A stretch of DNA of 64,000 nucleotides, from positions 399,342,001 to 399,406,000 of the forward strand of contig OZ024741.1 in the NCBI GenBank assembly GCA_964016885.1, given 5' to 3'. The position numbers were made by a program, and so were the translations under genes. Of the stretch, positions 17,554 through 62,581 are shown in pieces. Numbering within the stretch: position 1 is the first letter of the stretch; every line of letters starts with the position of its first letter. The stretch is from Eledone cirrhosa. Lineage: Eukaryota. The notes beneath the pieces are model-generated. The model had not been told where the DNA came from, searched no databases, and was given only the letters and a program-made list of their open reading frames with translations.

Positions 17554-17723
17554 TATATATATATATTGGAATAAATGCTCTGAAATAGCGATATATATGT
17601 GAATATAGACATAGAATATTCGAAAATATTCTGTATGTTTATAATAAACATTTTGAAGACCTAATCGCTATAGAATAGAATACGTCACGTATTACAATTA
17701 GATTCTCGATAAAAGCAAGGGAA

Positions 17724-17766
17724 GTAATCTACGCGTTTCATTCTTGTTAGAAATCATCAGGACTAC
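17724..17766 (-). ncRNA. Type I hammerhead of array 1 (also 18034-18076, 18344-18386, 18654-18696)
   Basis: Reverse complement of GTAGTC CTGATGA TTTCT-aaca-AGAAT GAAA CGCG TA GATTAC. Confidence 0.9.
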
Positions 17767-18878
17767 ATATCCAGTGCTTTTATCGAGAATGACACAGCTA
17801 GAGACTTATAGAATACTTAGCTGTGTACAGGAACTGGTTTGAAAGAGCGGTTGCCGGTCCGGCAGAAATTAGAAATTGGAATAAATGCTCTGAAATAGCG
17901 ATATATATGTGAATATAGACATAGAATATTCGAAAATATTCTGTATGTTTATAATAAACATTTTGAAGACCTAATCGCTATAGAATAGAATACGTCACGT
18001 ATTACAATTAGATTCTCGATAAAAGCAAGGGAAGTAATCTACGCGTTTCATTCTTGTTAGAAATCATCAGGACTACATATCCAGTGCTTTTATCGAGAAT
18101 GACACAGCTAGAGACTTATAGAATACTTAGCTGTGTACAGGAACTGGTTTGAAAGAGCGGTTGCCGGTCCGGCAGAAATTAGAAATTGGAATAAATGCTC
18201 TGAAATAGCGATATATATGTGAATATAGACATAGAATATTCGAAAATATTCTGTATGTTTATAATAAACATTTTGAAGACCTAATCGCTATAGAATAGAA
18301 TACGTCACGTATTACAATTAGATTCTCGATAAAAGCAAGGGAAGTAATCTACGCGTTTCATTCTTGTTAGAAATCATCAGGACTACATATCCAGTGCTTT
18401 TATCGAGAATGACACAGCTAGAGACTTATAGAATACTTAGCTGTGTACAGGAACTGGTTTGAAAGAGCGGTTGCCGGTCCGGCAGAAATTAGAAATTGGA
18501 ATAAATGCTCTGAAATAGCGATATATATGTGAATATAGACATAGAATATTCGAAAATATTCTGTATGTTTATAATAAACATTTTGAAGACCTAATCGCTA
18601 TAGAATAGAATACGTCACGTATTACAATTAGATTCTCGATAAAAGCAAGGGAAGTAATCTACGCGTTTCATTCTTGTTAGAAATCATCAGGACTACATAT
18701 CCAGTGCTTTTATCGAGAATGACACAGCTAGAGACTTTATATATCGCTATTTCAGAGCATTTATTCCAATTTCTAATTTCTGCCGGACCGGCAACCGCTC
18801 TTTCAAACCAGTTCCTGTACACAGCTAAGTATTCTATAAGTCTCTAGCTGTGTCATTCTCGATAAAAGCACTGGATAT

Positions 18879-18921
18879 GTAGTCCTGATGATTTCTAACA
18901 AGAATGAAACGCGTAGATTAC
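18879..18921 (+). ncRNA. Type I hammerhead of array 1 (also 19189-19231, 19499-19541)
   Basis: GTAGTC CTGATGA TTTCT-aaca-AGAAT GAAA CGCG TA GATTAC; stem I is extended by a 16-bp helix ATTCTCGATAAAAGCA/TGCTTTTATCGAGAAT (18855-18870/18928-18943). Confidence 0.9.
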
Positions 18922-19962
18922 TTCCCTTGCTTTTATCGAGAATCTAATTGTAATACGTGACGTATTCTATTCTATAGCGATTAGGTCTTCAAAATGTTTA
19001 TTATAAACATACAGAATATTTTCGAATATTCTATGTCTATATTCACATATATATCGCTATTTCAGAGCATTTATTCCAATTTCTAATTTCTGCCGGACCG
19101 GCAACCGCTCTTTCAAACCAGTTCCTGTACACAGCTAAGTATTCTATAAGTCTCTAGCTGTGTCATTCTCGATAAAAGCACTGGATATGTAGTCCTGATG
19201 ATTTCTAACAAGAATGAAACGCGTAGATTACTTCCCTTGCTTTTATCGAGAATCTAATTGTAATACGTGACGTATTCTATTCTATAGCGATTAGGTCTTC
19301 AAAATGTTTATTATAAACATACAGAATATTTTCGAATATTCTATGTCTATATTCACATATATATCGCTATTTCAGAGCATTTATTCCAATTTCTAATTTC
19401 TGCCGGACCGGCAACCGCTCTTTCAAACCAGTTCCTGTACACAGCTAAGTATTCTATAAGTCTCTAGCTGTGTCATTCTCGATAAAAGCACTGGATATGT
19501 AGTCCTGATGATTTCTAACAAGAATGAAACGCGTAGATTACTTCCCTTGCTTTTATCGAGAATCTAATTGTAATACGTGACGTATTCTATTCTATAGCGA
19601 TTAGGTCTTCAAAATGTTTATTATAAACATACAGAATATTTTCGAATATTCTATGTCTATATTCACATATATATATATATATATTCATATATGGCGTTTA
19701 TTATTTTTATATTTACTATTATATATATATAGTTGATAAATGAAAGAAAACAAGCACAGGGATGCAAAAATACAAAGTCATATTAGATTAACGCTTGGAG
19801 GAAGTGGAGGAGTTAATATGGTTTTACAGTGCACGTGTCGTATCTATTAGTAGCGGCATCTCTGAAGTCACCTCGACATGGTGAAATGATAGTTATTTTA
19901 GAAAAAACAAAACAAAACAAAACAAAAACCGAATCGCACCCCAAACTGTTGATTATATACAT

Positions 19963-20201: not shown

Positions 20202-20415
<214 letters not shown>

Positions 20416-20495
20416 GTTATTCCGGGTTGAATCGGAGGTAACCACAGTAAGTAAGGTACTCAATACATAGCAGAGTATAAAGTTTTAATATAGAT

Positions 20496-20548
20496 GAGAT
20501 TCTACAGGACTAGAACTGTTTCATTCATTAGAAATCATCAGGAATCTC
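20496..20548 (-). ncRNA. Type I hammerhead ribozyme, family B (in fold-back element 20415-20603; the inverted plus copy 20549-20597 has GAAA->CAAA)
   Basis: GAGATTC CTGATGA TTTC-taat-GAAT GAAA CAG-ttctagtc-CTG TA GAATCTC; 7-bp stem I, 4-bp stem III, GUA site. Confidence 0.88.
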
Positions 20549-20600
20549 GATTCCTGATGATTTCTAATGAATCAAACAGTTCTAGTCCTGTAGAATCTCA

Positions 20601-20754
<154 letters not shown>

Positions 20755-26142: not shown

Positions 26143-26192
26143 AGTATGTATGTATACGTACATACATATATGTATACAGACGTACAGTAGTA

Positions 26193-26262
<70 letters not shown>

Positions 26263-26411
26263 CAGGTACACATATATATATGTACGTATCAGTTTAGCGG
26301 ACGTTTATTATAACGCCCGCTTTGTCCGTTTGTAAACAAACGGACAGCCTGATTTATGCCGTACGGTGCTAAGGCAACCACGTCACCTTTTTGTTCAACA
26401 CTGACACAGGA

Positions 26412-26454
26412 ACGATGTACTAGTTTCAAGCTTCTTAGCTATCATCAGCACCGT
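26412..26454 (-). ncRNA. Type I hammerhead ribozyme
   Basis: Reverse complement of 26700-26742. Confidence 0.88.
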
Positions 26455-26699
26455 ATACCCTTCTGCCAGATGGTTGAACGTTCGAAAGTATATACTTTCC
26501 TTATGAAAATTAACGGCTGAGCAGCTTAATTTGCATATCGAGTGAGAAATGAAATTTCGTTTCATCCTATTTCAACTTATCGTTTTCGGTGCGCCTGGCC
26601 GACTGAACTCACTCGATATGCAAATTAGGCTGCTCAGCCGTTAATTTTCATAAGGAAAGTATATACTTTCGAAGGTTCAACCACCTGGCAGAAGGGTAT

Positions 26700-26742
26700 A
26701 CGGTGCTGATGATAGCTAAGAAGCTTGAAACTAGTACATCGT
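26700..26742 (+). ncRNA. Type I hammerhead ribozyme
   Basis: ACGGTG CTGATGA T AGCT-aaga-AGCT T GAAA CTAG TA CATCGT; palindromic ACTAGT stem III, GUA site. Confidence 0.88.
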
Positions 26743-26892
26743 TCCTGTGTCAGTGTTGAACAAAAAGGTGACGTGGTTGCCTTAACACCGTACGGCATAA
26801 ATCAGGCTGTTCAGTTTGTTTACAAACGAACAAAGCGGGTGTTATAATAAACGTCCGCTAAACTGATACGTACATATATATATGTGTACCTG

Positions 26893-26936
<44 letters not shown>

Positions 26937-27168
26937 TACTACTGTACGTCTGTATACATATATGTATGTACGTATACATACATACTTACATTTAAGTAAG
27001 TGCCGTACTAAGAGTGAGAAATGAAATTTCGTTTCATCCTATTTCAACTTATATGTATATGTATATATATATATACATATATATTATATAGTCTAGTATT
27101 GTCTATAGAGTATCTCTGTTTAATTCTAATAAATCTTTCTTTTCATTTCTCTCTCTTTATACACACAA

Positions 27169-29099: not shown

Positions 29100-32000
29100 C
29101 ACCACCACTACCACTGCCACCATCACTACCACTGCCACCATCACTACCACTACCACCATCACTACCACTACCATCACCACTACAACTGCCACCACCACTA
29201 CCACTACCACCATCACTACCACTAACACCATCACTACCACTACCACCACCACTACCACTGCCACCATCACTACCACTACCACCATCACTACCACTACTAC
29301 CATCACTACCACTACCACCATCACTACCACTGCCACCATCACTACCACTGCCACCATCACTACCACTACCACCATCACTACCACTACCACAATCACTACC
29401 ACTGCCACCATCACTACCACTACCACCATCACTACCACTACCACAATCACTACCACTACCACCATCATTACCACTGCCACCATCACTACCACTACCACCA
29501 TCATTACCAGTGCCACCATCACTACCACTACCACCATCACTACCACTGCCACCATCACTACCACTGCCACCATCACTACCACTACCACAATCACTACCAC
29601 TGCCACCACCACAACCAATACCACCATCACTACCACTGACACCATCACTACCACTGCCACCACCACTACCACTACCACCATCACTACCACTACCACCATC
29701 ACTACCACTGCCACCACCACTACCACTACCACCATCACTACCACTGCCACCACCACTACCACTACCACCACCACTACCACTACCACCATGACTACCACTA
29801 CCACCATCACTACCACTGCCACCATCACTACCACTGCCACCATCACTACCACTGCCACCACCACTACCACTACCACCATCACTACCACTGCCACCATCAC
29901 TACCACTACCACCATCACTACCACTGCCACCACAACTACCACTACCACCATCACTACCACTGCCACCATCACTACCACTACCACAATCACTACCACTACC
30001 ACCATCACTACCACTACCATCATGACTACCACTACCACCATCACTACCACTGCCACCATCACTACCACTGCCACCATCACTACCACTGCCACCACCACTA
30101 CCACTACCACCATCACTACCACTACCACCATCACTACCACTGCCACCATCACTACCACTGCCACCATCACTACCACTGCCACCACCACTACCACTACCAC
30201 CATCACTACCACTACCACCATCACTACCACTGCCACCATCACTACCACTGCCACCATCACTACCTCTGCCACCATCACTACCACTACCACAATCACTACC
30301 ACTACCACCATCACTACCACTACCACCATGACTACCACTACCACCATCACTACCACTGCCACCATCACTACCACTGCCACCATCACTACCACTGCCACCA
30401 CCACTACCACTACCACCATCACTACCACTACCACCATCACTACCACTGCCACCATCACTACCACTGCCACCATCACTACCACTTCCACCATCACTACCAC
30501 TACCACAATCACTACCACTGCCACCACCACTACCACTACCACCATCACTACCACTGCCACCACCACTACCACTACCACCATCACTACCACTGCCACCATC
30601 ACTACCACTACCACCATCACTACCACTGCCACTACCACTACCACTACCACCATCACTACCACTGCCACCATCACTACCACTGCCACCATCACTACCACTA
30701 CCACCACCACTACCACTGCCACCACCACTACCACTACCACCATCACTACCACTGCCACCACCACTACCACTACCACCATCACTACCACTGCCACCATCAC
30801 TACCACTAACACCATCACTACCACTGCCACCACCACTACCACTACCACCATCACTACCACTGCCACCATCACTACCACTGCCACCATCACTACCACTACC
30901 ACAATCATTACCACTACCACTATCACTACCACTACCACCATCACTTCCACTACCACCATCACTACCACTGCCACCATCACTACCACTGCCACCACCACTA
31001 CCATCACCATCACTACCACTGCCACCATCACTACCACTGCCACCACCACTACCATCACCATCACTACCACTGCCACCATCACTACCATCACCATCACTAC
31101 CACCACCACTACCACTGCCACCACCACTACCACTGCCACCATCACTACCATCACAATCACTACCACTGCCACCATCACTACCAACACCAACACTACCACT
31201 GCCACCATCACTACCATCACCATCACTACCACCACCACTACCACTGCCACCACCACTACCACTGCCACCATCACTACCATCACAATCACTACGACTACCA
31301 CCATCACTACCATCACCATCACTACCACTGCCACCATCACTACCAACACCATCACTACCACTGCAACCATCACTACTATCACCACCACTACCACTGCAAC
31401 CATCACTAATATCACCACCACTACCACTGCCACCACCACTACCACTGCCACTATCACTACCACTGCCTCCATCACTACCACTGCCACCATCACTACCATC
31501 ACCATCACTGTCACCATCACTACCACTGCCACCATCACTTCCATCACCAACACTGCCATTGCCACAATCACTACAATCACCATCACTAGCACTGCCACCA
31601 TCACTACCATCATCATCACTACCACTGCCACCATCACTACCATCACCACCACTACCACTGCTACCATCACTACCATCATCATCACTACCACTGCCACCAT
31701 CACTACCATCACCACCACTACCACTGCCACCATCACTACCATCACCATCACTACCACTGCCACCACCACTACCACTGCCACCATCACTACCATCACCACC
31801 ACTACCATCACCACCACTACCACTGCCACCATCACTACCATCACCACCACTATCATCACCACCACTACCACTGCCTCCTTCACTACCACTGCCTCCATCA
31901 CTACCACTGCCACCATCTCTACCATCACCACCACTGCCTCCATCACTATCACTGCCACCATCACTACCACTACCACCATCACTACCACTGCCTCCATCAC

Positions 32001-35000
32001 TACCTCTGCCACCATCACTACCACTGCCACCATCACTATCATTACCACCACTACCACTGCCACCACCACTACCACTGCCACCATCACTACCATCACCACT
32101 ACTACCACTGCCACCATCACTACCATAACCACCACTACCACTGCCACCATCACTACCATCACCACCACTACCATCACCATCACTACCGCTGCCACCATCA
32201 CTACCATCACCATCACTACCACTACACCATCACTACCATCACCAACACTACCACTGCCACCATTACTACCATCACCAACACTACCACTATCACCATTACC
32301 ATCATCACCAACGCTACCATTGCCACCATCACTACCATTACCATCACTACCACTGCCACAATCACTACCACTGCCACCATCACTACCATCACCATCACTA
32401 CCACTGCCACCATCACTACCATCACCATCACTACCACTGCCACAATCACTACCATCACCATCACTACCATCACCACCATCACCACCACTACCACTGCCAC
32501 CATCACTATCATCACCACCACTACCACTGCCACCACAACTACCACAGCCACCATCATTACCATCACCATCACTACCACTGCCAACACCACTACTATTGCC
32601 ACCATCACTACCATCACCATCACTACCACTGCCACCATCACTACCATCAACATCACTACCACTACCACCATCACTACCACTGCCACCATCACTACCATCA
32701 CCATCAGTACCACTGCCACCATCACTACCACTGCCTCCATCACTACCATCACCAACACTACCATTGCCACCATCACTACCATCACCAACACTACCATTGC
32801 CACCATCACTACCATCACCATCACTACCACTATCACCATCACTACCACTCCTACCATCACTACAATCACCATCACTACCACTGCCACCATCACTATCATC
32901 ACCACCACTACCACTGCCACCAACACTACCACCGCCACCATCACTACCATCACCACCACTACCACTGCCACCATCACTACCATCATTATCACTACCACTG
33001 ACACCATCACTACCATCACCAACACTACCACTGCCACCATCACTACCATCACCACCAGTACCACTGCCACCATCACTATCATTACCACCACTACCACTGC
33101 CACCACCACTACCACTGCCACCATCACTACCATCACCACCACTACCACTGTCACCATCACTACCATCACCACCACTACCATCACCATCACTACCACTGCC
33201 ACCATCACTATCATCACCACCACTACCACTGCCACCATCCCTACCATCACTACCACTGCCTCCATCACTACCACTGCCACCATCACTACCACTACCACCA
33301 TCACTACCACTGCCACCATCACTAGCACTGCCACCATCACTATCATTACCACCACTACTACTGCCACCACCACTTCCATTGCCACCATCACTACCATCAC
33401 CACCACTACCATCACCACCACTACCACTGCCACCATCACTACCATCACCACCACTACCATCACCATCACTACCACTGCCACCATCACTACCATCACCATC
33501 ACTACCACTACACCATCACTACCACTGCCAGCATCACTACCATCACCATCACTACCACCATCACTACCATCACCATCACTACCACTGCCACCATCACTAC
33601 CACTGCCACCATCACTACCATCACCATCACTACCACTGCCACCATCACTACCACTGCCACCATCACTACCATCACCATCGCTACCATCACCACCATCACC
33701 ACCACTACCAATGCCACCATCACTATCATCACCACCACTACCACTGCCACCACCACTACCACAGCCACCATCACTACCATCACCATCACTACCACTGCCA
33801 CCATCACTACCACTGCCACCATCACTACCATCACCATCAGTACCACTGCCTCCATCACTACCATCACCAACACTACCATTGCCACCATCACTACCATCCC
33901 CAACACTACCATTGCCACCATCACTACCATCACCATCACTACCACTGCCACCATCACTACCACTGCCACCATCACTACCATCACCATCACTACCACTGCC
34001 ACCATCACTACCACTGCCACCATCACTACCATCACCAACACTGCCATTGCCACCATCACTACCATCACCATCACTACCACTGCCAGCATCACCATCACTA
34101 CCACTGCCACCATCACTATCATCACCACCACTACCACTGCCTCCATCACTACCATCACCACCACTACCACTGCCACCATCACTACCATCACCATCACTAC
34201 CACTGCCACCATCACTACCATCACCACCACTACCACTGCCACCATCACTACCATCACCACCACTACCACTGCCACCATCACTACCATCACCATCACTACC
34301 ACTGCCACCATCACCATCACTACCACTGCCACCATCACTACCATCACCACCACTACCACTGCCACCATCACTACCATCACCATAACTACCACTGCCACCA
34401 TCACTACCATCACCATCACTACCACTGCCACCATCACTACCATCACCACCAGTACCACTGCCATCATCACTACCATCACCACCACTAACACTGCCACCAT
34501 CACTACCATTGCACCAGCACTACCACTGCCACCACCACTACTACCACTGGCACCATCACTACCATCACGATCACTACCACTGCCACCATCACTACCACTG
34601 CCACCATCACTACCACTGCCACCATCACTACCATTGCCACCAACACTACTACCATCACCATCACTACCACTACCACCATCACTACCATCACCATCACTAC
34701 CACTGCCACCATCACTACCACCACCATCACTACCACTGCCACCATCACTACCATCACCATCACTACCAATTCCACCATCACTACCATCACCACCACTACC
34801 ACTACCACCAGCACTACTATCACCATCACTACCACAACCACCATCACTACCATCACCATCACTACCATCACCATCACTACCACTGCCACCATCACTACCA
34901 TCACCATCACTACCACTACCACCATCACTACTATCACCATCACTACCACTACCACCATCACTACCATCACCAACACTACCATTGCCACCATCTCTACCAT

Positions 35001-37610
35001 CACTATCACTACCACTGCCACCATCACTACCATCACGACCACTACCACTGCCACCATCACTGCCATCACCATCACTACCACTGCCACCATCACTACCACT
35101 GCTACCATCACTACCATCACCGTCACTACCACTGCCACCATCACTACCATCACCATCACTACCACTGCCACCATCACTACCATCACCACCACTACCACTG
35201 CTACCATCACTACCACTGCTACCATCACTACCACTGCTACCATCACTACCACTGCCACCATCACTACCATCACCATCACTACCACTGCCACCATCACTAC
35301 CATCACCACCACTACCACTGCCACCATCACTACCACTGCTACCATCACTACCATCACCATCACTACCACTGCCACCATTACTACCATCACCACCACTACC
35401 ACTGCCACCATCACTACCATCACCACCACTACCACTGCCACCATCACTACCATCACCATCACTACCACTGCTACCATCACTACCATCACCACCACTACCA
35501 CTGCCACCATCACTACCATCACCACCACTACCACTGCCACCATCACTACCATCACCACCACCTCCACTGCCACCATCACTACCATCACCACCAGTACCAC
35601 TGCCACCATCACTACCATCACCACCACCTCCACTGCCACCATCACTACCATCACCACCACTACCACTGCCACCATCACTACCATCACCATCACTACCACT
35701 GCTACCATCACTACCATCACCACCACTGCCACCATCACTACCATCACCACCACTACCACTGCCACCATCACTACCATCACCATCACTACCACTGCCACCA
35801 TCACTACCATCACCACCAGTACCACTGCCACCATCACTACCATCACCACCACTACCACTGCCACCATCACTACCACTGCCACCATCACTACCACTGCCAC
35901 CATCACTACCACTGCCACCATCACTACCATTGCCACCAACACTACTACCATCACCATCACTACCACTACCACCATCACTACCATCACCATCACTACCACT
36001 GCCACCATCACTACCACCACCATCACTACCACTGCCACCATCACTACCATCACCATCACTACCACTGCCACCATCACTACCATCACCACCACTACCACTA
36101 CCACCATCACTACCATCACCATCACTACCACTACCACCATCAATACCATCACCATCACTACCATCACCATCGCTACCACTGCCACCATCACTACTATCAC
36201 CATCACTACCACTACCACCATCACTACTATCACCATCACTACCACTACCACTATCACTACCATCACCATCACTACCATTGCCACCATCTCTACCATCACC
36301 ATCACTACCACTGCCACCATCACTACCATCACGACCACTACCACTACCACCATCACTACCATCACCATCACTACCACTGCCACCTTCACTACCACCGCTA
36401 CCATCACTACCATCACCATCACTACCACTGCCACCATCACTACCATCACCATCACTACCACTGCCACCATCACTACCATCACCACCACTACCACTGCCAC
36501 CATCACTACCACTGCTACCATCACTACCACTGCCACCATCACTACCATCACCACCACCTCCACTGCCACCATCACTACCATCACCACCACTACCACTGCC
36601 ACCATCACTACCATCACCACCACCTCCACTGTCACCATCACTACCATCACCACCACTACCACTGCCACCATCACTACCATCACCAACACTACCACTGCCA
36701 CCATCACTACCATCACCATCACTACCACTGCCACCATCACTACCATCACCACCACTACCACTGCCACCATCACTACCATCACCAACACTACCACTGCCAC
36801 CATCACTACCTTCACCATCACTACCACTGCCACCATCACTACCATCACCATCACTACCACTGCCACCATCACTACCATCACCACCAGTACCACTGCCACC
36901 ATCACTACCATCACCACCACTACCACTGCCACCATCACTACCATTGCCACCATCACTACCACTGCCACCACCACCACTACCACTGCCACCATCACTACCA
37001 CTGCCACCATCACTACCACTGCCACCATCACTACCACTGCCACCATCACTACCATTGCCACCAACACTACTACCATCACCATCACTACCACTACCACCAT
37101 CACTACCATTACCATCACTACCACTGCCACCATCACTACCACCACCATCACTACCACTGCCACCATCACTACCATCACCATCACTACCACCGCCACCATC
37201 ACTACCATCACCACCACTACCACTACCACCATCACTACCATCACCATCACTACCACTACCACCATCACTACCATCACCATCACTACCATCACCATCACTA
37301 CCATTGCCACCATCTCTACCATCACCATCACTACCATCACGACCACTACCACTGCCACCATCACTACCATCACCATCACTACCACTGCCACCATCACTAC
37401 CACTGCTACCATCACTACCACTGCCACCATCACTACCATCACCATCACTACCACTGCCACCATCACTACCATCACCACCACTACCACTGCCACCATCACT
37501 ACCATCACCACCACTACCATCACTACCACCATCACCATCACTACCATAACCATCACTACCACAGCCACCATCACCATCACTACCATCACTATCACTACCA
37601 CCACCACTAC
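29100..37610. repeat. ~8.5-kb triplet-based cryptic satellite (ACC/ATC/ACT/GCC; 18-bp core ACCATCACTACCACTGCC and longer derivatives)
   Basis: Read directly; it produces the poly-Thr/Pro/His/Val ORFs. Confidence 0.95.
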
Positions 37611-42683: not shown

Positions 42684-45600
42684 AGAGTGAGGAACCAGAG
42701 CTGTGAAGAACCAGAGCTGTGAAGAACCAGAGCTGTGAGGAACCAGAGCTGTGAAGAACCAGAGTTGTGAAGAACCAGAGCTGTGAGGAACCAGAGCTGT
42801 GAAGAACCAGAGCTGTGAAGAACCAGAGCTGTGAGGAACCAGAGCTGTGAGGAACCAGAGCTGTGAGAAACCAGAGCTGTGAAGAACCAGAGCTGTGAAG
42901 AACCATAGTTGTGAAGAACCAGAGTTGTGAAGAACCAGAGCTGTGAAGAACCAGAGCTGTGAAGAACCAGAGTTGTGAAGAACCAGAGTTGTGAGGAACC
43001 AGAGCTGTGAAGAACCAGAGCTGTGAAGAACCAGAGCTGTGAGGAACCAGAGCTGTGAAGAACCAGAGTTGTGAAGAACCAGAGCTGTGAGGAACCAGAG
43101 CTGTGAAGAACCAGAGCTGTGAAGAACCAGAGCTGTGAGGAACCAGAGCTGTGAGGAACCAGAGCTGTGAGAAACCAGAGCTGTGAAGAACCAGAGCTGT
43201 GAAGAACCATAGTTGTGAAGAACCAGAGTTGTGAAGAACCAGAGCTGTGAAGAACCAGAGCTGTGAAGAACCAGAGTTGTGAAGAACCAGAGTTGTGAAG
43301 AACCAGAGTTGTGAGGAACCAGAGCTGTGAGGAACCAGAGTTGTGAAGAACAAGAGTTGTGAAGAACCAGAGCTGTGAAGAACCAGAGTTGTGAAGAACC
43401 AGAGATGTGAGGAACCAGAACTGTGAGGAACCAGAGCTGTGAGGAACCAGAGTTGTGAGGAACCAGAGCTGTGAGGATCCAGAGCTGTGAGGAACCAGAG
43501 TTGTGAGGAACCAGAGCTGTGAGGAACCAGAGCTGTGAAGAACCAGAGCTGTGAAGAACCAGAGCTGCGAGGAACCAGAGTTGTGAGGAACCAGAGTTGT
43601 GAAGAACCAGAGCTGTGAAGAACCAGAGTTGTGAAGAACCAGAGTTGTGAGGAACCAGAGCTGTGAAGAACCAGAGCTGTGAGGAACCAGAGCTGTGAAG
43701 AACCAGAGCTGTGAAGAACCAGAGTTGTGAAGAACCAGAGTCGTTGAGGAAACAGAGCTGTGAAGAACCAGAGTTGTGAGGAACCAGAGTTGTGAAGAAC
43801 CAGAGTTGTGAAGAACCAGAGTTGTGAGGAACCAGAGCTGTGAAGAACCAGAGTTGTGAAGAACCAGAGCTGTGAAGAACCAGAGCTGTGAGGAACCAGA
43901 GCTGTGAAGAACCAGAGTTGTGAGGGACCAGAGCTGTGAAGAACCAGAGCTGTGAGGAAACAGAGCTGTGAAGAACCAGAGTTGTGAGGAACCAGAGTTG
44001 TGAGGAAACAGATCTGTGAAGAACCAGAGTTGTGAGGAACCAGAGTTGTGAAGAACCAGAGTTGTGAAGAACCAGAGTTGTGAGGAAACAGAGTTGTGAG
44101 GAACCAGAGTTGTGAAGAACCAGAGCTGTAAAGAACCAGAGTTGTGAAGAACCAGAGCTGTGAAGAACCAGAGCTGTGAGGAACCAGAGCTGTGAAGAAC
44201 CAGAGCTGTGAAGAACCAGAGTTGTGAAGAACCAGAGTTGTGAAGAACCAGAACTGTGAAGAACCAGAGCTGTGAGGAACCAGAGTTGTGAAGAACCAGA
44301 GATGTGAGGAACCAGAACTGTGAGGAACCAGAGCTGTGAGGAACCAGAGTTGTGAGGAACCAGAGCTGTGAGGATCCAGAGCTGTGAGGAACCAGAGTTG
44401 TGAGGAACCAGAGCTGTGAGGAACCAGAGCTGTGAAGAACCAGAGCTGTGAAGAACCAGAGCTGCGAGGAACCAGAGTTGTGAGGAACCAGAGTTGTGAA
44501 GAACCAGAGCTGTGAAGAACCAGAGTTGTGAAGAACCAGAGTTGTGAGGAACCAGAGCTGTGAAGAACCAGAGCTGTGAGGAACCAGAGCTGTGAAGAAC
44601 CAGAGCTGTGAAGAACCAGAGTTGTGAAGAACCAGAGTCGTTGAGGAAACAGAGCTGTGAAGAACCAGAGTTGTGAGGAACCAGAGTTGTGAAGAACCAG
44701 AGTTGTGAAGAACCAGAGTTGTGAGGAACCAGAGCTGTGAAGAACCAGAGTTGTGAAGAACCAGAGCTGTGAAGAACCAGAGCTGTGAGGAACCAGAGCT
44801 GTGAAGAACCAGAGTTGTGAGGGACCAGAGCTGTGAAGAACCAGAGCTGTGAGGAAACAGAGCTGTGAAGAACCAGAGTTGTGAGGAACCAGAGTTGTGA
44901 GGAAACAGATCTGTGAAGAACCAGAGTTGTGAGGAACCAGAGTTGTGAAGAACCAGAGTTGTGAAGAACCAGAGTTGTGAGGAACCAGAGTTGTGAGGAA
45001 CCAGAGTTGTGAAGAACCAGAGCTGTAAAGAACCAGAGTTGTGAAGAACCAGAGCTGTGAAGAACCAGAGCTGTGAGGAACCAGAGCTGTGAAGAACCAG
45101 AGCTGTGAAGAACCAGAGTTGTGAAGAACCAGAGCTGTGAAGAACCACACCTGAAGAACCAGAGAACCAGAGCTGTGAGGAACCAGAGTTGTGAGGAACC
45201 AGAGTTGTGAGGAACCAGAGTTGTGAAGAACCAGAGTTGTGAAGAACCAGAGCTGTGAAGAACCAGAGCTGTGAGGAACCAGAGTTGTGAGGAACCAGAG
45301 CTGTGAAGAACCAGAGTTGTGAGGAACCAGAGTTGTGAAGAACCAGAGCTGTGAAGAACCAGAGCTGTGAGGAACCATAGTTGTGAAGAACCAGAGTTGT
45401 GAAGAACCAGAGTTGTGAAGAACCAGAGTTGTGAAGAACCAGAGTTGTGAAGAACCAGAGTTGTGAAGAACCAGAGCTGTGAAGAACCAGAGCTGTGAGG
45501 AACCAGAGTTGTGAGGAACCAGAGTTGTGAGGAACCAGAGTTGTGAAGAACCAAAGTTGTGAGGAACCAGAGTTGTAAAGAACCAGAGTTGTGAAGAACC

Positions 45601-48600
45601 AGAGTTGTGAAGAACCAGAGTTGTGAGGAACCAGAGTTGTGAAGAACCAGAGTTGTGAGGAACCAGAGCTGTGAGGAACCAGAGTTGTGAGGAACCAGAG
45701 TTGTGAGGAACCACACCTGAAGAACCAAAGCTGTGAAGAACCAGAGCTATGAAGAACCAGAGCTGTGAAGAACCAGAGTTGTGAGGAACCAGAGTTGTGA
45801 GGAACCAGAGCTGTGAGGAACCAGAGCTGTGAGGAACCAGAGTTGTGTGGAACCAGAGTTGTGAGGAACCAGAGCTGTGAGGAACCAGAGCTGTGAGAAA
45901 CCAGAGCTGTGAAGAACCAGAGCTGTGAGGAACCAGAGCTGTGAGGAACCAGAGCTGTGAGAAACCAGAGCTGTGAAGAACCAGAGCTGTGAGGAACCAG
46001 AGCTGTGAGGAACCAGAGCTGTGAGAAACCAGAGCTGTGAAGAACCAGAGCTGTGAAGAACCATAGTTGTGAAGAACCAGAGTTGTGAAGAACCAGAGCT
46101 GTGAAGAACCAGAGCTGTGAAGAACCAGAGTTGTGAAGAACCAGAGTTGTGAGGAACCAGAGCTGTGAAGAACCAGAGCTGTGAAGAACCAGAGCTGTGA
46201 GGAACCAGAGCTGTGAAGAACCAGAGTTGTGAAGAACCAGAGCTGTGAGGAACCAGAGCTGTGAAGAACCAGAGCTGTGAAGAACCAGAGCTGTGAGGAA
46301 CCAGAGCTGTGAGGAACCAGAGCTGTGAGAAACCAGAGCTGTGAAGAACCAGAGCTGTGAAGAACCATAGTTGTGAAGAACCAGAGTTGTGAAGAACCAG
46401 AGCTGTGAAGAACCAGAGCTGTGAAGAACCAGAGTTGTGAAGAACCAGAGTTGTGAAGAACCAGAGTTGTGAGGAACCAGAGCTGTGAGGAACCAGAGTT
46501 GTGAAGAACAAGAGTTGTGAAGAACCAGAGCTGTGAAGAACCAGAGTTGTGAAGAACCAGAGATGTGAGGAACCAGAACTGTGAGGAACCAGAGCTGTGA
46601 GGAACCAGAGTTGTGAGGAACCAGAGCTGTGAGGATCCAGAGCTGTGAGGAACCAGAGTTGTGAGGAACCAGAGCTGTGAGGAACCAGAGCTGTGAAGAA
46701 CCAGAGCTGTGAAGAACCAGAGCTGCGAGGAACCAGAGTTGTGAGGAACCAGAGTTGTGAAGAACCAGAGCTGTGAAGAACCAGAGTTGTGAAGAACCAG
46801 AGTTGTGAGGAACCAGAGCTGTGAAGAACCAGAGCTGTGAGGAACCAGAGCTGTGAAGAACCAGAGCTGTGAAGAACCAGAGTTGTGAAGAACCAGAGTC
46901 GTTGAGGAAACAGAGCTGTGAAGAACCAGAGTTGTGAGGAACCAGAGTTGTGAAGAACCAGAGTTGTGAAGAACCAGAGTTGTGAGGAACCAGAGCTGTG
47001 AAGAACCAGAGTTGTGAAGAACCAGAGCTGTGAAGAACCAGAGCTGTGAGGAACCAGAGCTGTGAAGAACCAGAGTTGTGAGGGACCAGAGCTGTGAAGA
47101 ACCAGAGCTGTGAGGAAACAGAGCTGTGAAGAACCAGAGTTGTGAGGAACCAGAGTTGTGAGGAAACAGATCTGTGAAGAACCAGAGTTGTGAGGAACCA
47201 GAGTTGTGAAGAACCAGAGTTGTGAAGAACCAGAGTTGTGAGGAACCAGAGTTGTGAGGAACCAGAGTTGTGAAGAACCAGAGCTGTAAAGAACCAGAGT
47301 TGTGAAGAACCAGAGCTGTGAAGAACCAGAGCTGTGAGGAACCAGAGCTGTGAAGAACCAGAGCTGTGAAGAACCAGAGTTGTGAAGAACCAGAGTTGTG
47401 AAGAACCAGAACTGTGAAGAACCAGAGCTGTGAGGAACCAGAGTTGTGAAGAACCAGAGATGTGAGGAACCAGAACTGTGAGGAACCAGAGCTGTGAGGA
47501 ACCAGAGTTGTGAGGAACCAGAGCTGTGAGGATCCAGAGCTGTGAGGAACCAGAGTTGTGAGGAACCAGAGCTGTGAGGAACCAGAGCTGTGAAGAACCA
47601 GAGCTGTGAAGAACCAGAGCTGCGAGGAACCAGAGTTGTGAGGAACCAGAGTTGTGAAGAACCAGAGCTGTGAAGAACCAGAGTTGTGAAGAACCAGAGT
47701 TGTGAGGAACCAGAGCTGTGAAGAACCAGAGCTGTGAGGAACCAGAGCTGTGAAGAACCAGAGCTGTGAAGAACCAGAGTTGTGAAGAACCAGAGTCGTT
47801 GAGGAAACAGAGCTGTGAAGAACCAGAGTTGTGAGGAACCAGAGTTGTGAAGAACCAGAGTTGTGAAGAACCAGAGTTGTGAGGAACCAGAGCTGTGAAG
47901 AACCAGAGTTGTGAAGAACCAGAGCTGTGAAGAACCAGAGCTGTGAGGAACCAGAGCTGTGAAGAACCAGAGTTGTGAGGGACCAGAGCTGTGAAGAACC
48001 AGAGCTGTGAGGAAACAGAGCTGTGAAGAACCAGAGTTGTGAGGAACCAGAGTTGTGAGGAAACAGATCTGTGAAGAACCAGAGTTGTGAGGAACCAGAG
48101 TTGTGAAGAACCAGAGTTGTGAAGAACCAGAGTTGTGAGGAACCAGAGTTGTGAGGAACCAGAGTTGTGAAGAACCAGAGCTGTAAAGAACCAGAGTTGT
48201 GAAGAACCAGAGCTGTGAAGAACCAGAGCTGTGAGGAACCAGAGCTGTGAAGAACCAGAGCTGTGAAGAACCAGAGTTGTGAAGAACCAGAGCTGTGAAG
48301 AACCACACCTGAAGAACCAGAGAACCAGAGCTGTGAGGAACCAGAGTTGTGAGGAACCAGAGTTGTGAGGAACCAGAGTTGTGAAGAACCAGAGTTGTGA
48401 AGAACCAGAGCTGTGAAGAACCAGAGCTGTGAGGAACCAGAGTTGTGAGGAACCAGAGCTGTGAAGAACCAGAGTTGTGAGGAACCAGAGTTGTGAAGAA
48501 CCAGAGCTGTGAAGAACCAGAGCTGTGAGGAACCATAGTTGTGAAGAACCAGAGTTGTGAAGAACCAGAGTTGTGAAGAACCAGAGTTGTGAAGAACCAG

Positions 48601-49813
48601 AGTTGTGAAGAACCAGAGTTGTGAAGAACCAGAGCTGTGAAGAACCAGAGCTGTGAGGAACCAGAGTTGTGAGGAACCAGAGTTGTGAGGAACCAGAGTT
48701 GTGAAGAACCAAAGTTGTGAGGAACCAGAGTTGTGAAGAACCAGAGTTGTGAAGAACCAGAGTTGTGAAGAACCAGAGTTGTGAGGAACCAGAGTTGTGA
48801 AGAACCAGAGTTGTGAGGAACCAGAGCTGTGAGGAACCAGAGTTGTGAGGAACCAGAGTTGTGAGGAACCACACCTGAAGAACCAAAGCTGTGAAGAACC
48901 AGAGCTATGAAGAACCAGAGCTGTGAAGAACCAGAGTTGTGAGGAACCAGAGTTGTGAGGAACCAGAGCTGTGAGGAACCAGAGCTGTGAGGAACCAGAG
49001 TTGTGTGGAACCAGAGTTGTGAGGAACCAGAGCTGTGAGGAACCAGAGCTGTGAGAAACCAGAGTTGTGTGGAACCAGAGTTGTGAGGAACCAGAGCTGT
49101 GAGGAACCAGAGTTGTGTGGAACCAGAGTTGTGAGGAACCAGAGCTGTGAGAAACCAGAGTTGTGTGGAACCAGAGTTGTGAGGAACCAGAGTTGTGAGG
49201 AACCAGAGTTGTGAGGAACCAGAGTTGTGAGGAACCAGAGCTGTGAGGAACCAGAGTTGTGTGGAACCAGAGTTGTGAGGAACCAGAGCTGTGAGGAACC
49301 AGAGCTGTGAGGAACCAGAGTTGTGAGGAACCAGAGTTGTGAGGAACCAGAGCTGTGAGGAACCAGAGTTGTGTGGAACCAGAGTTGTGAGGAACCACAC
49401 CTGAAGAACCAGAGTTGTGAAGAACCAGAGCTGTCAGGAACCAGAGCTGTGAGGAACCAGAGCTGTGAGGAACCAGAGTTGTGAGGAACCAGAGTTGTGA
49501 GGAACCACACCTGAAGAACCAGAGTTGTGAAGAACCAGAGCTGTGAAGAACCAGAGCTGTGAGGAACCAGAGTTGTGAAGAACCAGAGCTGTCAGGAACT
49601 AGAGTTGTGAAGAACCAGAGCTGTGAGGAACCAGAGCTATGAAGAACCAGAGCTGTGAAGAACCAGAGTTGTGAGGAACCAGAGCTGTGAGGAACCAGAG
49701 CTGTGAGGAACCACACCTGAAGAACCAGAGTTGTGAGGAACCACACCTGAAGAACCAGAGTTGTGAAGAACCAGAGCTGTGAAGAACCAGAGCTGTGAAG
49801 AACCAGAGCTGTG
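42684..49813. repeat. 7.1-kb 16-bp minisatellite GAACCAGAG(C/T)TGTGA(A/G) with nested 897-bp and 3158-bp higher-order duplications
   Basis: Variant marker AGAGATGTG at 43401, 44298, 46559 and 47456. Confidence 0.95.
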
Positions 49814-49984
49814 AGTATATATTGGTGAGCGACTCCATAACAATCAACCAGCTGGCCTTCTTTTACATACGGTTTAGAATGTACGTATGTTAGTGGCATC
49901 TGTGAAATAAAATGGCTTCAAGCAGAGAGTTACACTGCATGGTGGTCTCGCCTTGCCGGAAACTTAACTTATGTTTTACAGCAT

Positions 49985-54788: not shown

Positions 54789-56340
54789 GGCGGCGAATTG
54801 GCAGAGTGGTTAGAACGTCAGATAGAATGGCAGAGTTGGTAGAACGTCAGATAGAATGGCAGAGTTGGTAGAACGTCAGATAGAATGGCGGAGTGGTTAG
54901 AACGTCAGATAGAATGGCAGAGTTGTTAGAACGTCAGATAGAATGGCAGAGTGGTTAGAACGTCAGATAGAATGGCAGAGTGGTTAGAACGTCAGATAGA
55001 ATGGCAGAGTCGTTAGAACGTCAGATAGAATGGCAGAGTGGTTAGAACGTCAGATAGAATGGCAGAGTGGTTAGAACGTCAGATAGAATGGCAGAGTCGT
55101 TAGAACGTCAGATAGAATGGCAGAGTGGTTAGAACGTCAGATAGAATGGCAGAGTGGTTAGAACGTCAGATAGAATGGTAGAGTCTTTAGAACGTCAGAT
55201 AGAATGGTAGAGTGGTTAGAACGTCAGATAGAATGGCAGAGTGGTTAGAACGTCAGATAGAATGGCAGAGTGGTTAGAACGTCAGATAGAATGGCAGAGT
55301 TGTTAGAACGTCAGATAAAATGGCAGAGTAGTTAGAACGTCGGATAGAATGGCAGAGTTGGTAGAACGTCAGATAGAATGGCAGAGTTGTTAGAACGTCA
55401 GATAGAATGGCAGAGTGGTTAGAACGTCAGATAGAATGGTAGAGTCTTTAGAACGTCAGATAGAATGGTAGAGTGGTTAGAACGTCAGATAGAATGGCAG
55501 AGTGGTTAGAACGTCAGATAGAATGGCAGAGTGGTTAGAACGTCAGATAGAATGGCAGAGTTGTTAGAACGTCAGATAAAATGGCAGAGTAGTTAGAACG
55601 TCGGATAGAATGGCAGAGTTGGTAGAACGTCAGATAGAATGGCAGAGTTGTTAGAACGTCAGATAGAATGGCAGAGTGGTTAGAACGTCAGATAGAATGG
55701 CAGAGTTGTTAGAACGTCAGATAGAATGGCAGAGTGGTTAGAACGTCAGATAGAATGGCAGAGTGGTTAGAACGTCAGATAGAATGGCAGAGTTGTTAGA
55801 ACGTCAGATAGAATGGTAGAGTGGTTAGAACGTCAGATAGAATGGCAGAGTTGTTAGAACGTCAGATAGAATGGCAGAGTGGTTAGAACGTCAGATAGAA
55901 TGGCAGAGTGGTTAGAACGTCAGATAGAATGGCAGAGTTGTTAGAACGTCAGATAGAATGGCAGAGTTGTTAGAACGTCAGATAGAATGGCAGAGTGGTT
56001 AGAACGTCAGATAGAATGGCAGAGTGGTTAGAACGTCAGATAGAATGGCAGAGTGGTTAGAACGTCAGATAGAATGGCAGAGTTGTTAGAACGTCAGATA
56101 GAATGGCAGAGTGGTTAGAACGTCAGATCGAATGGCAGAGTGGTTAGAACGTCAGATAGAATGGCAGAGTGGTTAGAACGTCAGATAGAATGGCAGAGTT
56201 GGTAGAACGTCAGATAGAATGTTTTACGGTATTCGTTCCGACTCTCTGCTCTCTGAGTTCAAATCCCGCCGAGGTCAACTTTGCCTTTTATCCATTCGAT
56301 GTTGATAAAAAAAGTACCAGTCTAGTACTGGGGTTCGATT
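54789..56340 (+). mobile_element. SINE (family 1 type) whose A-box head is amplified into 49 tandem 29-bp units (54799-56219)
   Basis: Unit TGGCAGAGTGGTTAGAACGTCAGATAGAA, preceded by the SINE start GGCGGCGAAT and followed by B-box GAGTTCAAATCCC and the central domain. Confidence 0.9.
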
Positions 56341-58524: not shown

Positions 58525-59439
58525 AATATATAATATATACATATATAATATATATGTATTTATATATATAATATAATATAAATGTATTTATATAAGTATA
58601 TTTATAGCGACACACATATGTCCAAAGCAGCTCTCTCATATCCCAATCAAGGTAGCTGTAAATATGTAAATATATACCAGGGAAGAAGAATGAACCTCTT
58701 CTCATCTTAACGCCGTTATAAACAGCGGCATAACTGTAAAAATACCGAGTGTTGATTTAGCATAAATTACTGTATTCAGTTCTTCCTGCTCGGCCAACAA
58801 TAAACTCCACTTAACATTTCTACTTGTGTCTCACATTCTTCGAAAATGGCTGCTACCCACGTGGTACATGTATGAAATCATAGTACGGTTCATTTCCATG
58901 GTGAATACCACAATTATGTATTGAGTACTTTTACTTAAAAAACAGTGCACTATATATGCCTCTCTATATGTCTGTATGTTTCTCTCTCTCTCTCTCCCTC
59001 TCTCACTTCCCCCTCCCTCTCTCACTCACTCCCTCTCTCTCTCTCTCCCTCTCTCACTTCCCCCTCCCTCTCTCACTCACTCCCTCTCTCTCTCTTTCAT
59101 ATATACCTGTATATAGAGAAGGCGCCTGACTCGTTTGTTAGGGTGTTCGGCTCAGAATCGTAAGGTCGTGAGTTCGTTTTCTCACAGCACGTTGTGTCCT
59201 TGAGCAAGACACTTTATTTCACGTTGCTCCAGTCCACTCAGCTGGCAAATATGAGTTTTACCTGTAACTCGAAGAGCTAGTCTTGTCACAATCTGTATAA
59301 CGCTGAATCTCCCCGAGAACAACGTTATGGGTGCACCCGTCTATATGTATATAGATATATTGATATTATATATATATGTATATATATATATATATATATT
59401 GATATTATATATATATGTATATATATATATATATATATA

Positions 59440-61352
59440 AATATAGACATAGAATATTCGAAAATATTCTGTATGTTTATAATAAACATTTTGAAGACCT
59501 AATCGCTATAGAATAGAATACGTCACGTATTACAATTAGATTCTCGACAAAAGCAAGGGAAGTAAATCTACGCGTTTCATTCTTATTAGAAATCGTCAGG
59601 ACTACATATCCAGTGCTTTTATCGAGAATGACACAGCTAGAGACTTATAGAATACTTAGCTGTGTACAGGAACTGGTTTGAAAGAGCGGTTGCCGGTCCG
59701 GCAGAAATTAGAAATTGGAATAAATGCTCTGAAATAGCGATATATATGTGAATATAGACATAGAATATTCGAAAATATTCTGTATGTTTATAATAAACAT
59801 TTTGAAGACCTAATCGCTATAGAATAGAATACGTCACGTATTACAATTAGATTCTCGACAAAAGCAAGGGAAGTAAATCTACGCGTTTCATTCTTATTAG
59901 AAATCGTCAGGACTACATATCCAGTGCTTTTATCGAGAATGACACAGCTAGAGACTTATAGAATACTTAGCTGTGTACAGGAACTGGTTTGAAAGAGCGG
60001 TTGCCGGTCCGGCAATATTCTATGTCTATATTCTATGTCTATATTCTATGTCTATATTCTATGTCTATATTCACATATATATCGCTATTTCAGAGCATTT
60101 ATTCCAATTTCTAATTTCTGCCGGACCGGCAACCGCTCTTTCAAACCAGTTCCTGTACACAGCTAAGTATTCTATAAGTCTCTAGCTGTGTCATTCTCGA
60201 TAAAAGCACTGGATATGTAGTCCTGACGATTTCTAATAAGAATGAAACGCGTAGATTTACTTCCCTTGCTTTTGTCGAGAATCTAATTGTAATACGTGAC
60301 GTATTCTATTCTATAGCGATTAGGTCTTCAAAATGTTTATTATAAACATACAGAATATTTTCGAATATTCTATGTCTATATTCACATATATATCGCTATT
60401 TCAGAGCATTTATTCCAATTTCTAATTTCTGCCGGACCGGCAACCGCTCTTTCAAACCAGTTCCTGTACACAGCTAAGTATTCTATAAGTCTCTAGCTGT
60501 GTCATTCTCGATAAAAGCACTGGATATGTAGTCCTGACGATTTCTAATAAGAATGAAACGCGTAGATTTACTTCCCTTGCTTTTGTCGAGAATCTAATTG
60601 TAATACGTGACGTATTCTATTCTATAGCGATTAGGTCTTCAAAATGTTTATTATAAACATACAGAATATTTTCGAATATTCTATGTCTATATTCACATAT
60701 ATATCGCTATTTCAGAGCATTTATTCCAATTTCTAATTTCTGCCGGACCGGCAACCGCTCTTTCAAACCAGTTCCTGTACACAGCTAAGTATTCTATAAG
60801 TCTCTAGCTGTGTCATTCTCGATAAAAGCACTGGATATGTAGTCCTGACGATTTCTAATAAGAATGAAACGCGTAGATTTACTTCCCTTGCTTTTGTCGA
60901 GAATCTAATTGTAATACGTGACGTATTCTATTCTATAGCGATTAGGTCTTCAAAATGTTTATTATAAACATACAGAATATTTTCGAATATTCTATGTCTA
61001 TATTCACATATATATCGCTATTTCAGAGCATTTATTCCAATTTCTAATTTCTGCCGGACCGGCAACCGCTCTTTCAAACCAGTTCCTGTACACAGCTAAG
61101 TATTCTATAAGTCTCTAGCTGTGTCATTCTCGATAAAAGCACTGGATATGTAGTCCTGACGATTTCTAATAAGAATGAAACGCGTAGATTTACTTCCCTT
61201 GCTTTTGTCGAGAATCTAATTGTAATACGTGACGTATTCTATTCTATAGCGATTAGGTCTTCAAAATGTTTATTATAAACATACAGAATATTTTCGAATA
61301 TTCTATGTCTATATTCACATATATATCGCTATTTCAGAGCATTTATTCCAAT
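59440..61352. mobile_element. Retrozyme-like array 2: 311-bp unit, ~1.85 copies (HHR minus: 59562-59605, 59873-59916) then ~4.2 inverted copies (HHR plus: 60217-60260, 60528-60571, 60839-60882, 61150-61193), junction ~60014
   Basis: Same unit as array 1 with 4 visible differences; HHR GTAGTC CTGACGA TTTCT-aata-AGAAT GAAA CGCG TA GATTTAC. Confidence 0.9.
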
Positions 61353-61382
61353 TTATATATATATATATATTGATATTATATA

Positions 61383-61444
<62 letters not shown>

Positions 61445-62581
61445 TATATAATATCAATATATATATATATACATATATATATAATATCAATATATGTATA
61501 TATATATACATATAGACGGGTGCACCCATAACGTTGTTTTCGGGGAGATTCGCTGAATCTCCCCGAGAACAACGTTATGGGTGCACCCGTCTATATGTAT
61601 ATATATATACATATATTGATATTATACCAAGTATATATGCATGTAGATATGATACATCAAATAAAATCGTAATTCCCAATATGCAAAGAAATTGAACGAA
61701 GACTGTGTTACACTCTCTTCTATAATCAGTAACGTAATCCATGATACATTTAAAAAAGACGATATTATATATAAACTGCATTAGGAGAAAATTACCGATG
61801 GAAATATATGCGATGTTTTTATAAACGATCGTTAACCGGAAGTGTTGACATTTGAAAATTTTAAAGAAGTGAATCATTAAATCTGCAATAAAATTATTTA
61901 TATCTAATCAAAAGTTACGAAATTTAGTACATAAATTATATAATATTCATTCATTATTTATTCAAAGTTCAAAGCCCGCCAAGGTTAACTTTGCCTTTCA
62001 TCCTCATGGGGTCGACGAAATAAAGTACCAGTAATGCACTGGGTAATTGCTGGCCTTGTGCCAAAAGTAGAAACAATTATTTATTCAAAGAACTCAGAAT
62101 GGCAAGGGCCGTAACTCTATGCTTTGGCGCATAGAGTTACGGCCCTTGCCATTCTGAGTTCAAATCCCGCCGAGGTTAACTTTGCCTTTCATCTTTACGG
62201 GGTCGATAAAATAAAGTACCAGTAATACACTGGTTAATTGCTGGCCTTGTGCCTAACGTAGAAACAATTATTTATTCAAAGTAATCCAGCGCAGTCCTGC
62301 ACTCTTTTTTTTTTATTATAGTTAAGATATATATATATAATTAGGTCCAATTAGGTACAATTAGGAATCAAATGATTCTATGGACTTACTTTCTTATACA
62401 TTGCTCTGATTGTTGATTATTTAATTAATTAATTCGTCATTGAGCCACACCGTGAATGGTTGCCAAAAACATATATATATATATATGGCTCTGTCTAGTT
62501 TACGTATATGTAAACCTTTATATATATATAGATATATATATATATATATAATTATATATAGATAGATAGATAGATACATAC

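Follow-up and report, generated by a model that had tools for sequence, protein, structure and literature searches.

The tandem array at positions 59440-61354 of the window (the whole stretch of 64,000 nucleotides of Eledone cirrhosa DNA analysed here) is best explained as a non-coding hammerhead retrozyme that inserted very recently and was probably laid down by the reverse transcriptase (RT) and endonuclease of a Penelope-like element (PLE) as two head-to-head arms from one small, probably circular RNA; the probability assigned to this explanation as a whole is about 0.7. The locus, hereafter array 2, is an ordinary member of a large family to which array 1 of the same window also belongs, and its mechanistic content is the stereotyped two-armed layout. 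An initial annotation of the window overlooked this Penelope-type insertion structure, together with the flank duplications and the filler of array 2. Statements taken from PMC7229834, PMC8557442, PMC4209133, PMC13282606 and the vertebrate retrozyme preprint (bioRxiv 10.64898/2026.07.22.740005) refer to the accessible parts of these sources.

An exact 311-bp period runs through both parts of array 2, which consists of two inverted arms joined 5' to 5' with three copies of a 13-nt filler between them (Table 1). The filler may have formed by slippage or re-priming during the joining of two cDNAs. In the right flank, the sequence of the left flank recurs first in inverted form (61411-61551, 93% identity) and then as a direct copy of approximately 90 nt (61551-61650, 85% identity). 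Such duplication of the target sequence in both direct and inverted form is unusual; across the family, direct flank duplications were found in 3 of 93 arrays and inverted ones in 4 of 93 (control, 0 of 93).

Table 1. Features of arrays 1 and 2 and of related elements. Positions refer to the window unless a locus label is given; distances marked + are counted from the predicted ribozyme cut.
Feature	Position	Strand	Remarks
Array 1	17565..19674	opposite orientation to array 2	same element; common 310-bp haplotype; 3.8 + 3.0 copies head-to-head
Family C terminal-repeat insertion	20414-20605		short, head-to-head, in (TA)n
Array 2, left flank	59301..59439		end of SINE-like sequence and TA-rich target
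Array 2, left arm	59440..60014	-	1.85 units of 311 bp; ribozyme on the minus strand
Array 2, outer end of left arm			'short' site, ~+129; merges into (TA)n
Left-arm hammerhead motifs	59557..59611, 59868-59922	-	predicted by pattern
Array 2, junction filler	60015..60053	+	first 13 nt of the right arm, present three additional times
Array 2, right arm	60054..61354	+	4.2 copies; outer end at 'long' (tail) site, +168, then (TA)n
Long helix closing the hammerhead	60193..60282	+	16-nt arms flanking the hammerhead; A>G wobble at 60274
Type I hammerhead motif (predicted)	60211..60265	+	first plus copy; read by eye; predicted cut after GUA at 60253
Core N7, U>C	60227	+	first plus copy of array 2
Loop II, C>U	60237	+	first plus copy of array 2
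Extra U directly past the predicted cut	~60256	+	first plus copy of array 2
Long helix, A>G	60274	+	first plus copy; partner is U, pairing probability 1.0
Further hammerhead motifs	60522-60576, 60833-60887, 61144-61198	+	predicted by pattern
Array 2, right flank	61355..61650		(TA)n and duplicated left-flank sequence
Sister family, examples	L053:8128-8435, L086:174-483, L108-L137

The unit measures 310-311 bp, has a GC content of 34% and contains a predicted type I hammerhead ribozyme, identified from a motif read by eye together with the topology given in the literature. Internal loop 1 in stem I is predicted, together with a palindromic, minimal stem III and a stem II whose base is formed by a U-U. 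The pattern is present in all six copies in array 2 and in seven in array 1, and the stems pair. Rfam returned no hammerhead match at gathering level across the window, nor at E<=5 for positions 60050-60700. The predicted fold of the monomer exceeds chance in both linear and circular form (z = -3.8; 0 of 100 shuffles equal it). Neither array contains an open frame of at least 220 aa or an ORF for a telomerase-like RT or GIY-YIG endonuclease, and the ends of the unit, which pass directly into (TA)n, give no sign of LTR structure. The element is not an autonomous PLE; in all testable features it is, as judged from the sequence, an animal non-LTR retrozyme with predicted cleavage. In the preprint, eight of nine predicted Xenopus retrozymes failed to cleave in vitro (10.64898/2026.07.22.740005).

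Full copies within array 2 are 100% identical to one another and 98.7% identical to array 1, in agreement with the initial annotation, which had described a 311-bp variant homogeneous within itself. Its list of four differences between the arrays is also complete: there are exactly four, each fixed in all copies of both arms. Three of the four lie inside the 55-nt hammerhead, so that the claim that they spare the ribozyme is incorrect, even if no invariant core base is hit. The extra U reduces the predicted stability of stem I from -8.1 to -4.7 kcal/mol. Three of the differences mark a 311-bp subfamily that accounts for 2 of 66 arrays chosen by end, and the A>G change recurs on three haplotype backgrounds; array 1 carries one of the two most frequent haplotypes. 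No flanking sequence is shared between the two arrays, and an origin of array 2 by segmental duplication of array 1 is therefore ruled out. The arrays had further been said to differ in start, end and junction phases. This is true of the inner junctions. The outer ends, however, lie at +166 (left) and ~+140 (right) from the predicted cut in array 1 and at ~+129 (left) and +168 (right) in array 2, i.e., array 2 is array 1 flipped, with the same two sites.

Genome-wide, an internal 26-nt block of the unit has 16,622 exact matches on many contigs, which serve as the unit count. Exact junctions between the unit and (TA)n at +166 occur 1,051 times (control, 0), and slightly longer ends add 266 forward-strand matches, the reverse count being inflated by overlapping matches. 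The family amounts to well over a thousand fresh insertions, or roughly 1,500 arrays. A set of 122 stretches was analysed, composed of the two arrays of the window, 15 chosen by sequence score, 94 of the first 100 sites with a +166 junction and 11 with longer ends; thus 105 of the 122 were chosen by the long end, all from contig C1. Of the 15 selected on sequence score only, one is interrupted by an assembly gap; the other 14 are head-to-head, each with a short and a long end. Inverted arms were found in 107 of the 122 stretches, 13 of them with one end outside the stretch; the 15 others comprise three with gaps, seven cut by the stretch end and five that are single-armed.

The outer ends fall at two fixed sites approximately 30 nt apart, the short site at ~+129 to +140 and the long site at +166 to +175. 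The 94 fully resolved arrays include 92 with one long and one short end and two that are internally rearranged; none has two long or two short ends. A tail at one end only, corresponding to two start sites, is accordingly present in 92 of 94. TA runs border both sides in 80 of 93 arrays, most of which were chosen by one TA junction. The phases of the inner junctions are scattered over the unit (3 of 188 near the cut), arm lengths range from 0.2 to ~30 units, and either arm may be the longer one (correlation of log arm lengths, r=0.25).

Haplotypes were compared in 96 arrays with at least three full units each (833 units). The majority type of the respective array is matched by 726 of the 833 units, and both arms share a haplotype in 67 of 73 arrays, which supports the earlier suggestion of a mobile family with one template per array. 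Of the 35 haplotypes, 23 were seen in a single array. Sporadic substitutions number 85 in the 833 units (~3e-4 per base). Where the two arms overlap in coverage, none of 60 sporadic variants is mirrored (present at the same rank in both), a count from which arrays out of register through indels, including L080 and L099, are omitted. In these two arrays the order of variants is mirrored in both arms, and in L071 the haplotype changes inside one arm. Most arrays are therefore consistent with a one-monomer bottleneck, and a few with a template that was multimeric or with template switching.

These data bear on two other origins of the arms. The second arm could derive from the first cDNA by fold-back or DNA-templated copying (twin-priming or repair synthesis) and not from a priming event of its own, as might be suggested by the inverted copies of flanking DNA at array 2 and by the mirrored arrays L080 and L099. 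This is extremely improbable given the different fixed outer ends in 92 of 94 arrays, the weak correlation of arm lengths with either arm being the longer, and the lack of mirrored sporadic variants. Alternatively, the PLE machinery could copy a linear multimer that was transcribed from an existing array and left uncleaved, in which case a circle would be unneeded and the ribozyme dispensable for insertion. Insertion by a PLE in vitro is indeed unaffected by hammerhead mutants, so that cleavage is dispensable there (PMC11167929); a homogeneous source array would likewise be expected to give homogeneous daughters, and the mirrored variant order in L080 and L099 is in line with such a template. 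The 23 haplotypes found in one array each are fixed through both arms, however, which indicates a bottleneck of one unit, and sporadic variants are not shared by rank. In addition, arms of ~30 units would probably not be sustained by 5'-truncating linear copying unless another form of amplification contributed. A linear multimeric template is considered fairly unlikely.

Another possibility is that a short insertion of one or two units was later expanded and homogenised in the DNA by unequal crossing-over or gene conversion, and expansion at the DNA level has been proposed for retrozyme arrays (bioRxiv 10.64898/2026.07.22.740005). In a few long arrays the sporadic variants are periodic (period 7 in L061, period 5 in L060) or irregular (L084), suggesting some local duplication or assembly effects. 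The low sporadic variation of ~3e-4 per base leaves little time for such a process, though, and the arms share haplotypes, both outer ends are precise and variants that break pairing are not inherited. The combination of inverted arms with a shared haplotype, precise ends and uninherited pairing-breaking variants therefore indicates selection at the RNA level, and later expansion in the DNA is very improbable as the source of the arrays.

Selection on pairing was assessed on a fold predicted from a single haplotype, with 100 confidently paired sites. All nine inherited helix changes keep pairing, compared with 7 of 28 sporadic ones (Fisher p=9e-5), and one array completes the path from U-A via U-G to C-G. 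Selection on RNA base-pairing is thus supported family-wide. The initial annotation had proposed selection on ribozyme structure from the pattern of differences between arrays 1 and 2; four differences are too few and could not demonstrate it. The proposal is upheld by the family for the helices but not for the catalytic core, where the 12 core bases carry 0 of 32 inherited and 4 of 85 sporadic changes (p=0.57, low power). For the core, support comes from a C3-G8 / U3-A8 swap in a sister family, a sequence comparison that would point to core-specific selection. Frequent variants are clustered in the ribozyme (6 of 11 sites within 43 of 310 nt, p=0.002).

The inherited helix changes are dominated by A>G (seven of nine), which affects 7 of 29 paired As, whereas none of the 20 paired Cs is changed (p=0.03). 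A 30-nt helix segment has 14,387 exact matches genome-wide; a further 23 are matched with C>T permitted at four paired Cs and 1,847 with A>G permitted at eight paired As, counted as units and not as events. The small number of C>T units is in line with selection on structure. Three A>G sites recur on three to four backgrounds, each with a 5' U. The asymmetry is attributed to the cost in predicted fold stability, since A>G is nearly free (median 0.0 kcal/mol) and C>T is costly (median 2.1 kcal/mol). ADAR editing as a needed cause of the bias was set aside; the stability costs suffice. In an additional reading, A-to-I edits of the RNA template would have been fixed in DNA via reverse transcription and would account for the recurrent helix A>G changes, including that of array 2. 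The predominance of A>G among inherited helix changes, its recurrence at the three 5'-U sites and the excess of 1,847 over 23 units are compatible with editing, but selection on stability alone predicts an excess of A>G and template switching may explain the recurrence, and we regard such edits as distinctly unlikely.

The insertion signature of PLEs supplies the basis of the proposed mechanism. Published PLE insertions comprise an inverted, 5'-truncated copy, a tail of 30-40 bp at one end and a bias towards microsatellites (PMC8557442), and a purified PLE protein, predicted to be dimeric, cuts both strands of AT-rich DNA and starts at two internal RNA sites, by which the tail is defined (PMC11167929). 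Circular RNAs are expressed from animal retrozymes (PMC7229834), and PLEs have been proposed to mobilise retrozymes (PMC7229834; bioRxiv 10.64898/2026.07.22.740005). In the model, transcription, cleavage, circularisation and the enzyme are the conjectural steps. A tandem array would be transcribed, and its hammerheads would cut the transcript to monomers of 310-311 nt, probably as dimers via the palindromic stem III; by analogy with the published retrozymes (PMC7229834), the monomers would then be circularised by a host ligase. At a (TA)n tract, a dimeric PLE enzyme would cleave both strands and begin priming at two fixed positions within the RNA approximately 30 nt apart, in the manner of the purified enzyme (PMC11167929). 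Each RT would then travel around the circle, crossing the ligated cut site, and stop at random after 0.2 to ~30 rounds, and the two cDNAs would be joined, often via microhomology or filler as in array 2, giving inverted arms with one shared haplotype. As a single RNA molecule lies behind each insertion, new variants would occupy the whole array and be screened for base-pairing, a filter observed for the helices. Several findings speak against the mechanism, namely the lack of an Rfam hammerhead match and of an end-matched PLE among the families compared, the eight Xenopus retrozymes that failed to cleave, the dispensability of hammerhead cleavage for PLE insertion in vitro, the mirrored arrays L080 and L099, the switch in L071 and the five single-armed stretches.

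A more specific reading, in which a PLE RT dimer carries out two-ended rolling-circle copying of one 311-nt RNA circle, with both cut ends of (TA)n priming at fixed sites, is given roughly even odds. If it is true, a single RNA molecule has been cloned into DNA in each of the ~1,500 arrays, and the genome documents how a viroid-like RNA population evolves under base-pairing selection. An extension of the two-ended rolling-circle reading, by which some inherited A>G changes would be RNA edits returned to DNA, is doubtful to the same degree as template editing in general.

The element resembles the non-LTR retrozymes of coral, mussel and axolotl (PMC7229834), which are non-coding tandem repeats of 150-450 bp with one type I hammerhead per unit, a GC content below 50% and strong self-pairing; its short palindromic helix III and the U-U with which its helix II begins have been reported separately, for the two axolotl motifs. 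The head-to-head arms, the fixed internal ends and the (TA)n targeting seen here are not described in the available text of PMC7229834, and the words 'inverted' and 'microsatellite' do not occur in its main text. For the animal retrozymes of that report, expression and cleavage were shown, whereas the 310-311-bp family is known here from sequence.

With the endonuclease-bearing (EN+) PLEs the family shares the inverted, 5'-truncated second copy, the tail at one end and the two internal start sites, as well as an AT-rich target and a hammerhead with a palindromic helix III (PMC8557442, PMC11167929, PMC4209133). In contrast to EN+ PLEs, the RT/GIY-YIG ORF is absent, a single short unit is repeated along both arms, and an end-matched PLE was not found among the PLE families compared. 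The vertebrate retrozymes interpreted as PLE derivatives (10.64898/2026.07.22.740005) are similar in their co-occurrence with PLEs and in a hammerhead resembling the PLE terminal repeat (here 24 bases in common with family C, see below). The preprint bases its case on co-occurrence and phylogeny and suggests that tandem expansion was local; in the present family, by contrast, the insertion footprint itself is of the PLE type, which favours amplification in the course of reverse transcription. A literature search that took in few of the subscription papers revealed no published description of two-armed, fixed-end retrozyme insertions or of an octopus retrozyme, and ribozymes are unmentioned in the main text of a paper on the repeats of O. 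vulgaris (PMC13282606).

The mobilising enzyme and the rolling-circle origin of retrozyme arrays have been proposed rather than shown in the available text of earlier work (PMC7229834; 10.64898/2026.07.22.740005). The present family provides exact RNA start sites, a target and a two-ended geometry, which opens the question of the mobiliser to a direct PLE assay (PMC11167929), and it also bears on the origin of the inverted copies of PLEs. The comparison of inherited with sporadic variants is a simple gauge of selection on a parasitic RNA from one assembly.

A sister family of 318-320 bp, 63-68% identical to the unit and older (2,303 motif matches), retains the end motif and the long helix. Its core pairs are U3-A8 (18), C3-G8 (7), U-G (2) and C-A (0) among 27 pattern matches, in which a few loci are perhaps counted twice; PLE hammerheads are also known to carry the U3-A8 swap (PMC4209133). 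A pattern for families with the shared conserved block gave 45 matches, and a profile of the 310-nt and sister families run over the collected loci found those two families and family C only. Blocks upstream of the ribozyme are common to the 310-nt and sister families and could be promoter elements.

Young PLEs with intact ORFs in the same genome end at two 3' sites in (TA)n, like the 310-311-bp family. One such family with a 775-aa ORF (L104 / L138-L167) is very young and forms head-to-head pairs with two 3' ends approximately 52 nt apart in (TA)n; its tail of ~52 nt has no end matching that of the unit, and the two show no similarity beyond TA-rich sequence. Family C is an autonomous PLE with a 758-aa ORF (L229) and 4,311 hammerhead matches. 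Its 24 bases in common with the unit lie in the hammerhead core and stem II, and its ends lie at ~+12 to +21 and +89. None of the PLE families compared has the end sequences of the unit.

Horizontal transfer of the element was considered and rejected. The unit occurs in 20 of 24 listed sequencing runs (18 organism codes), but trace levels of a high-copy repeat are no evidence of transfer. Among four runs in which depth was determined, it is very high in X1, reaches 5-7 on one contig each in X5 and X18, and amounts to 0 reads in X24; its presence in X5 and X18, which have other organism codes, is probably trace carry-over of the high-copy repeat.

Several other repeats were noted in the window. 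At ~26150-27050 an inverted hammerhead pair (cores at 26448, minus, and 26706, plus) of another repeat family ends in (TA)n; this family has a period of ~490 bp in L052. A hammerhead motif at 2020 (plus), within ~1960-2110, is followed by a (TA)n end and looks like a PLE-type 3' end, as do similar sequences in L047 and L066. Part of an endonuclease region of PLE type occurs at 16196-16552, with 46% identity to the protein of family C. A block of 49 tandem 29-bp units at 54799-56221 resembles, by eye, the 5' part of a tRNA-derived SINE. Two strand-skewed minisatellites occupy positions 29100-37610 (8.5 kb, 18/33-bp period) and 42687-49814 (7.1 kb, 16-bp period).
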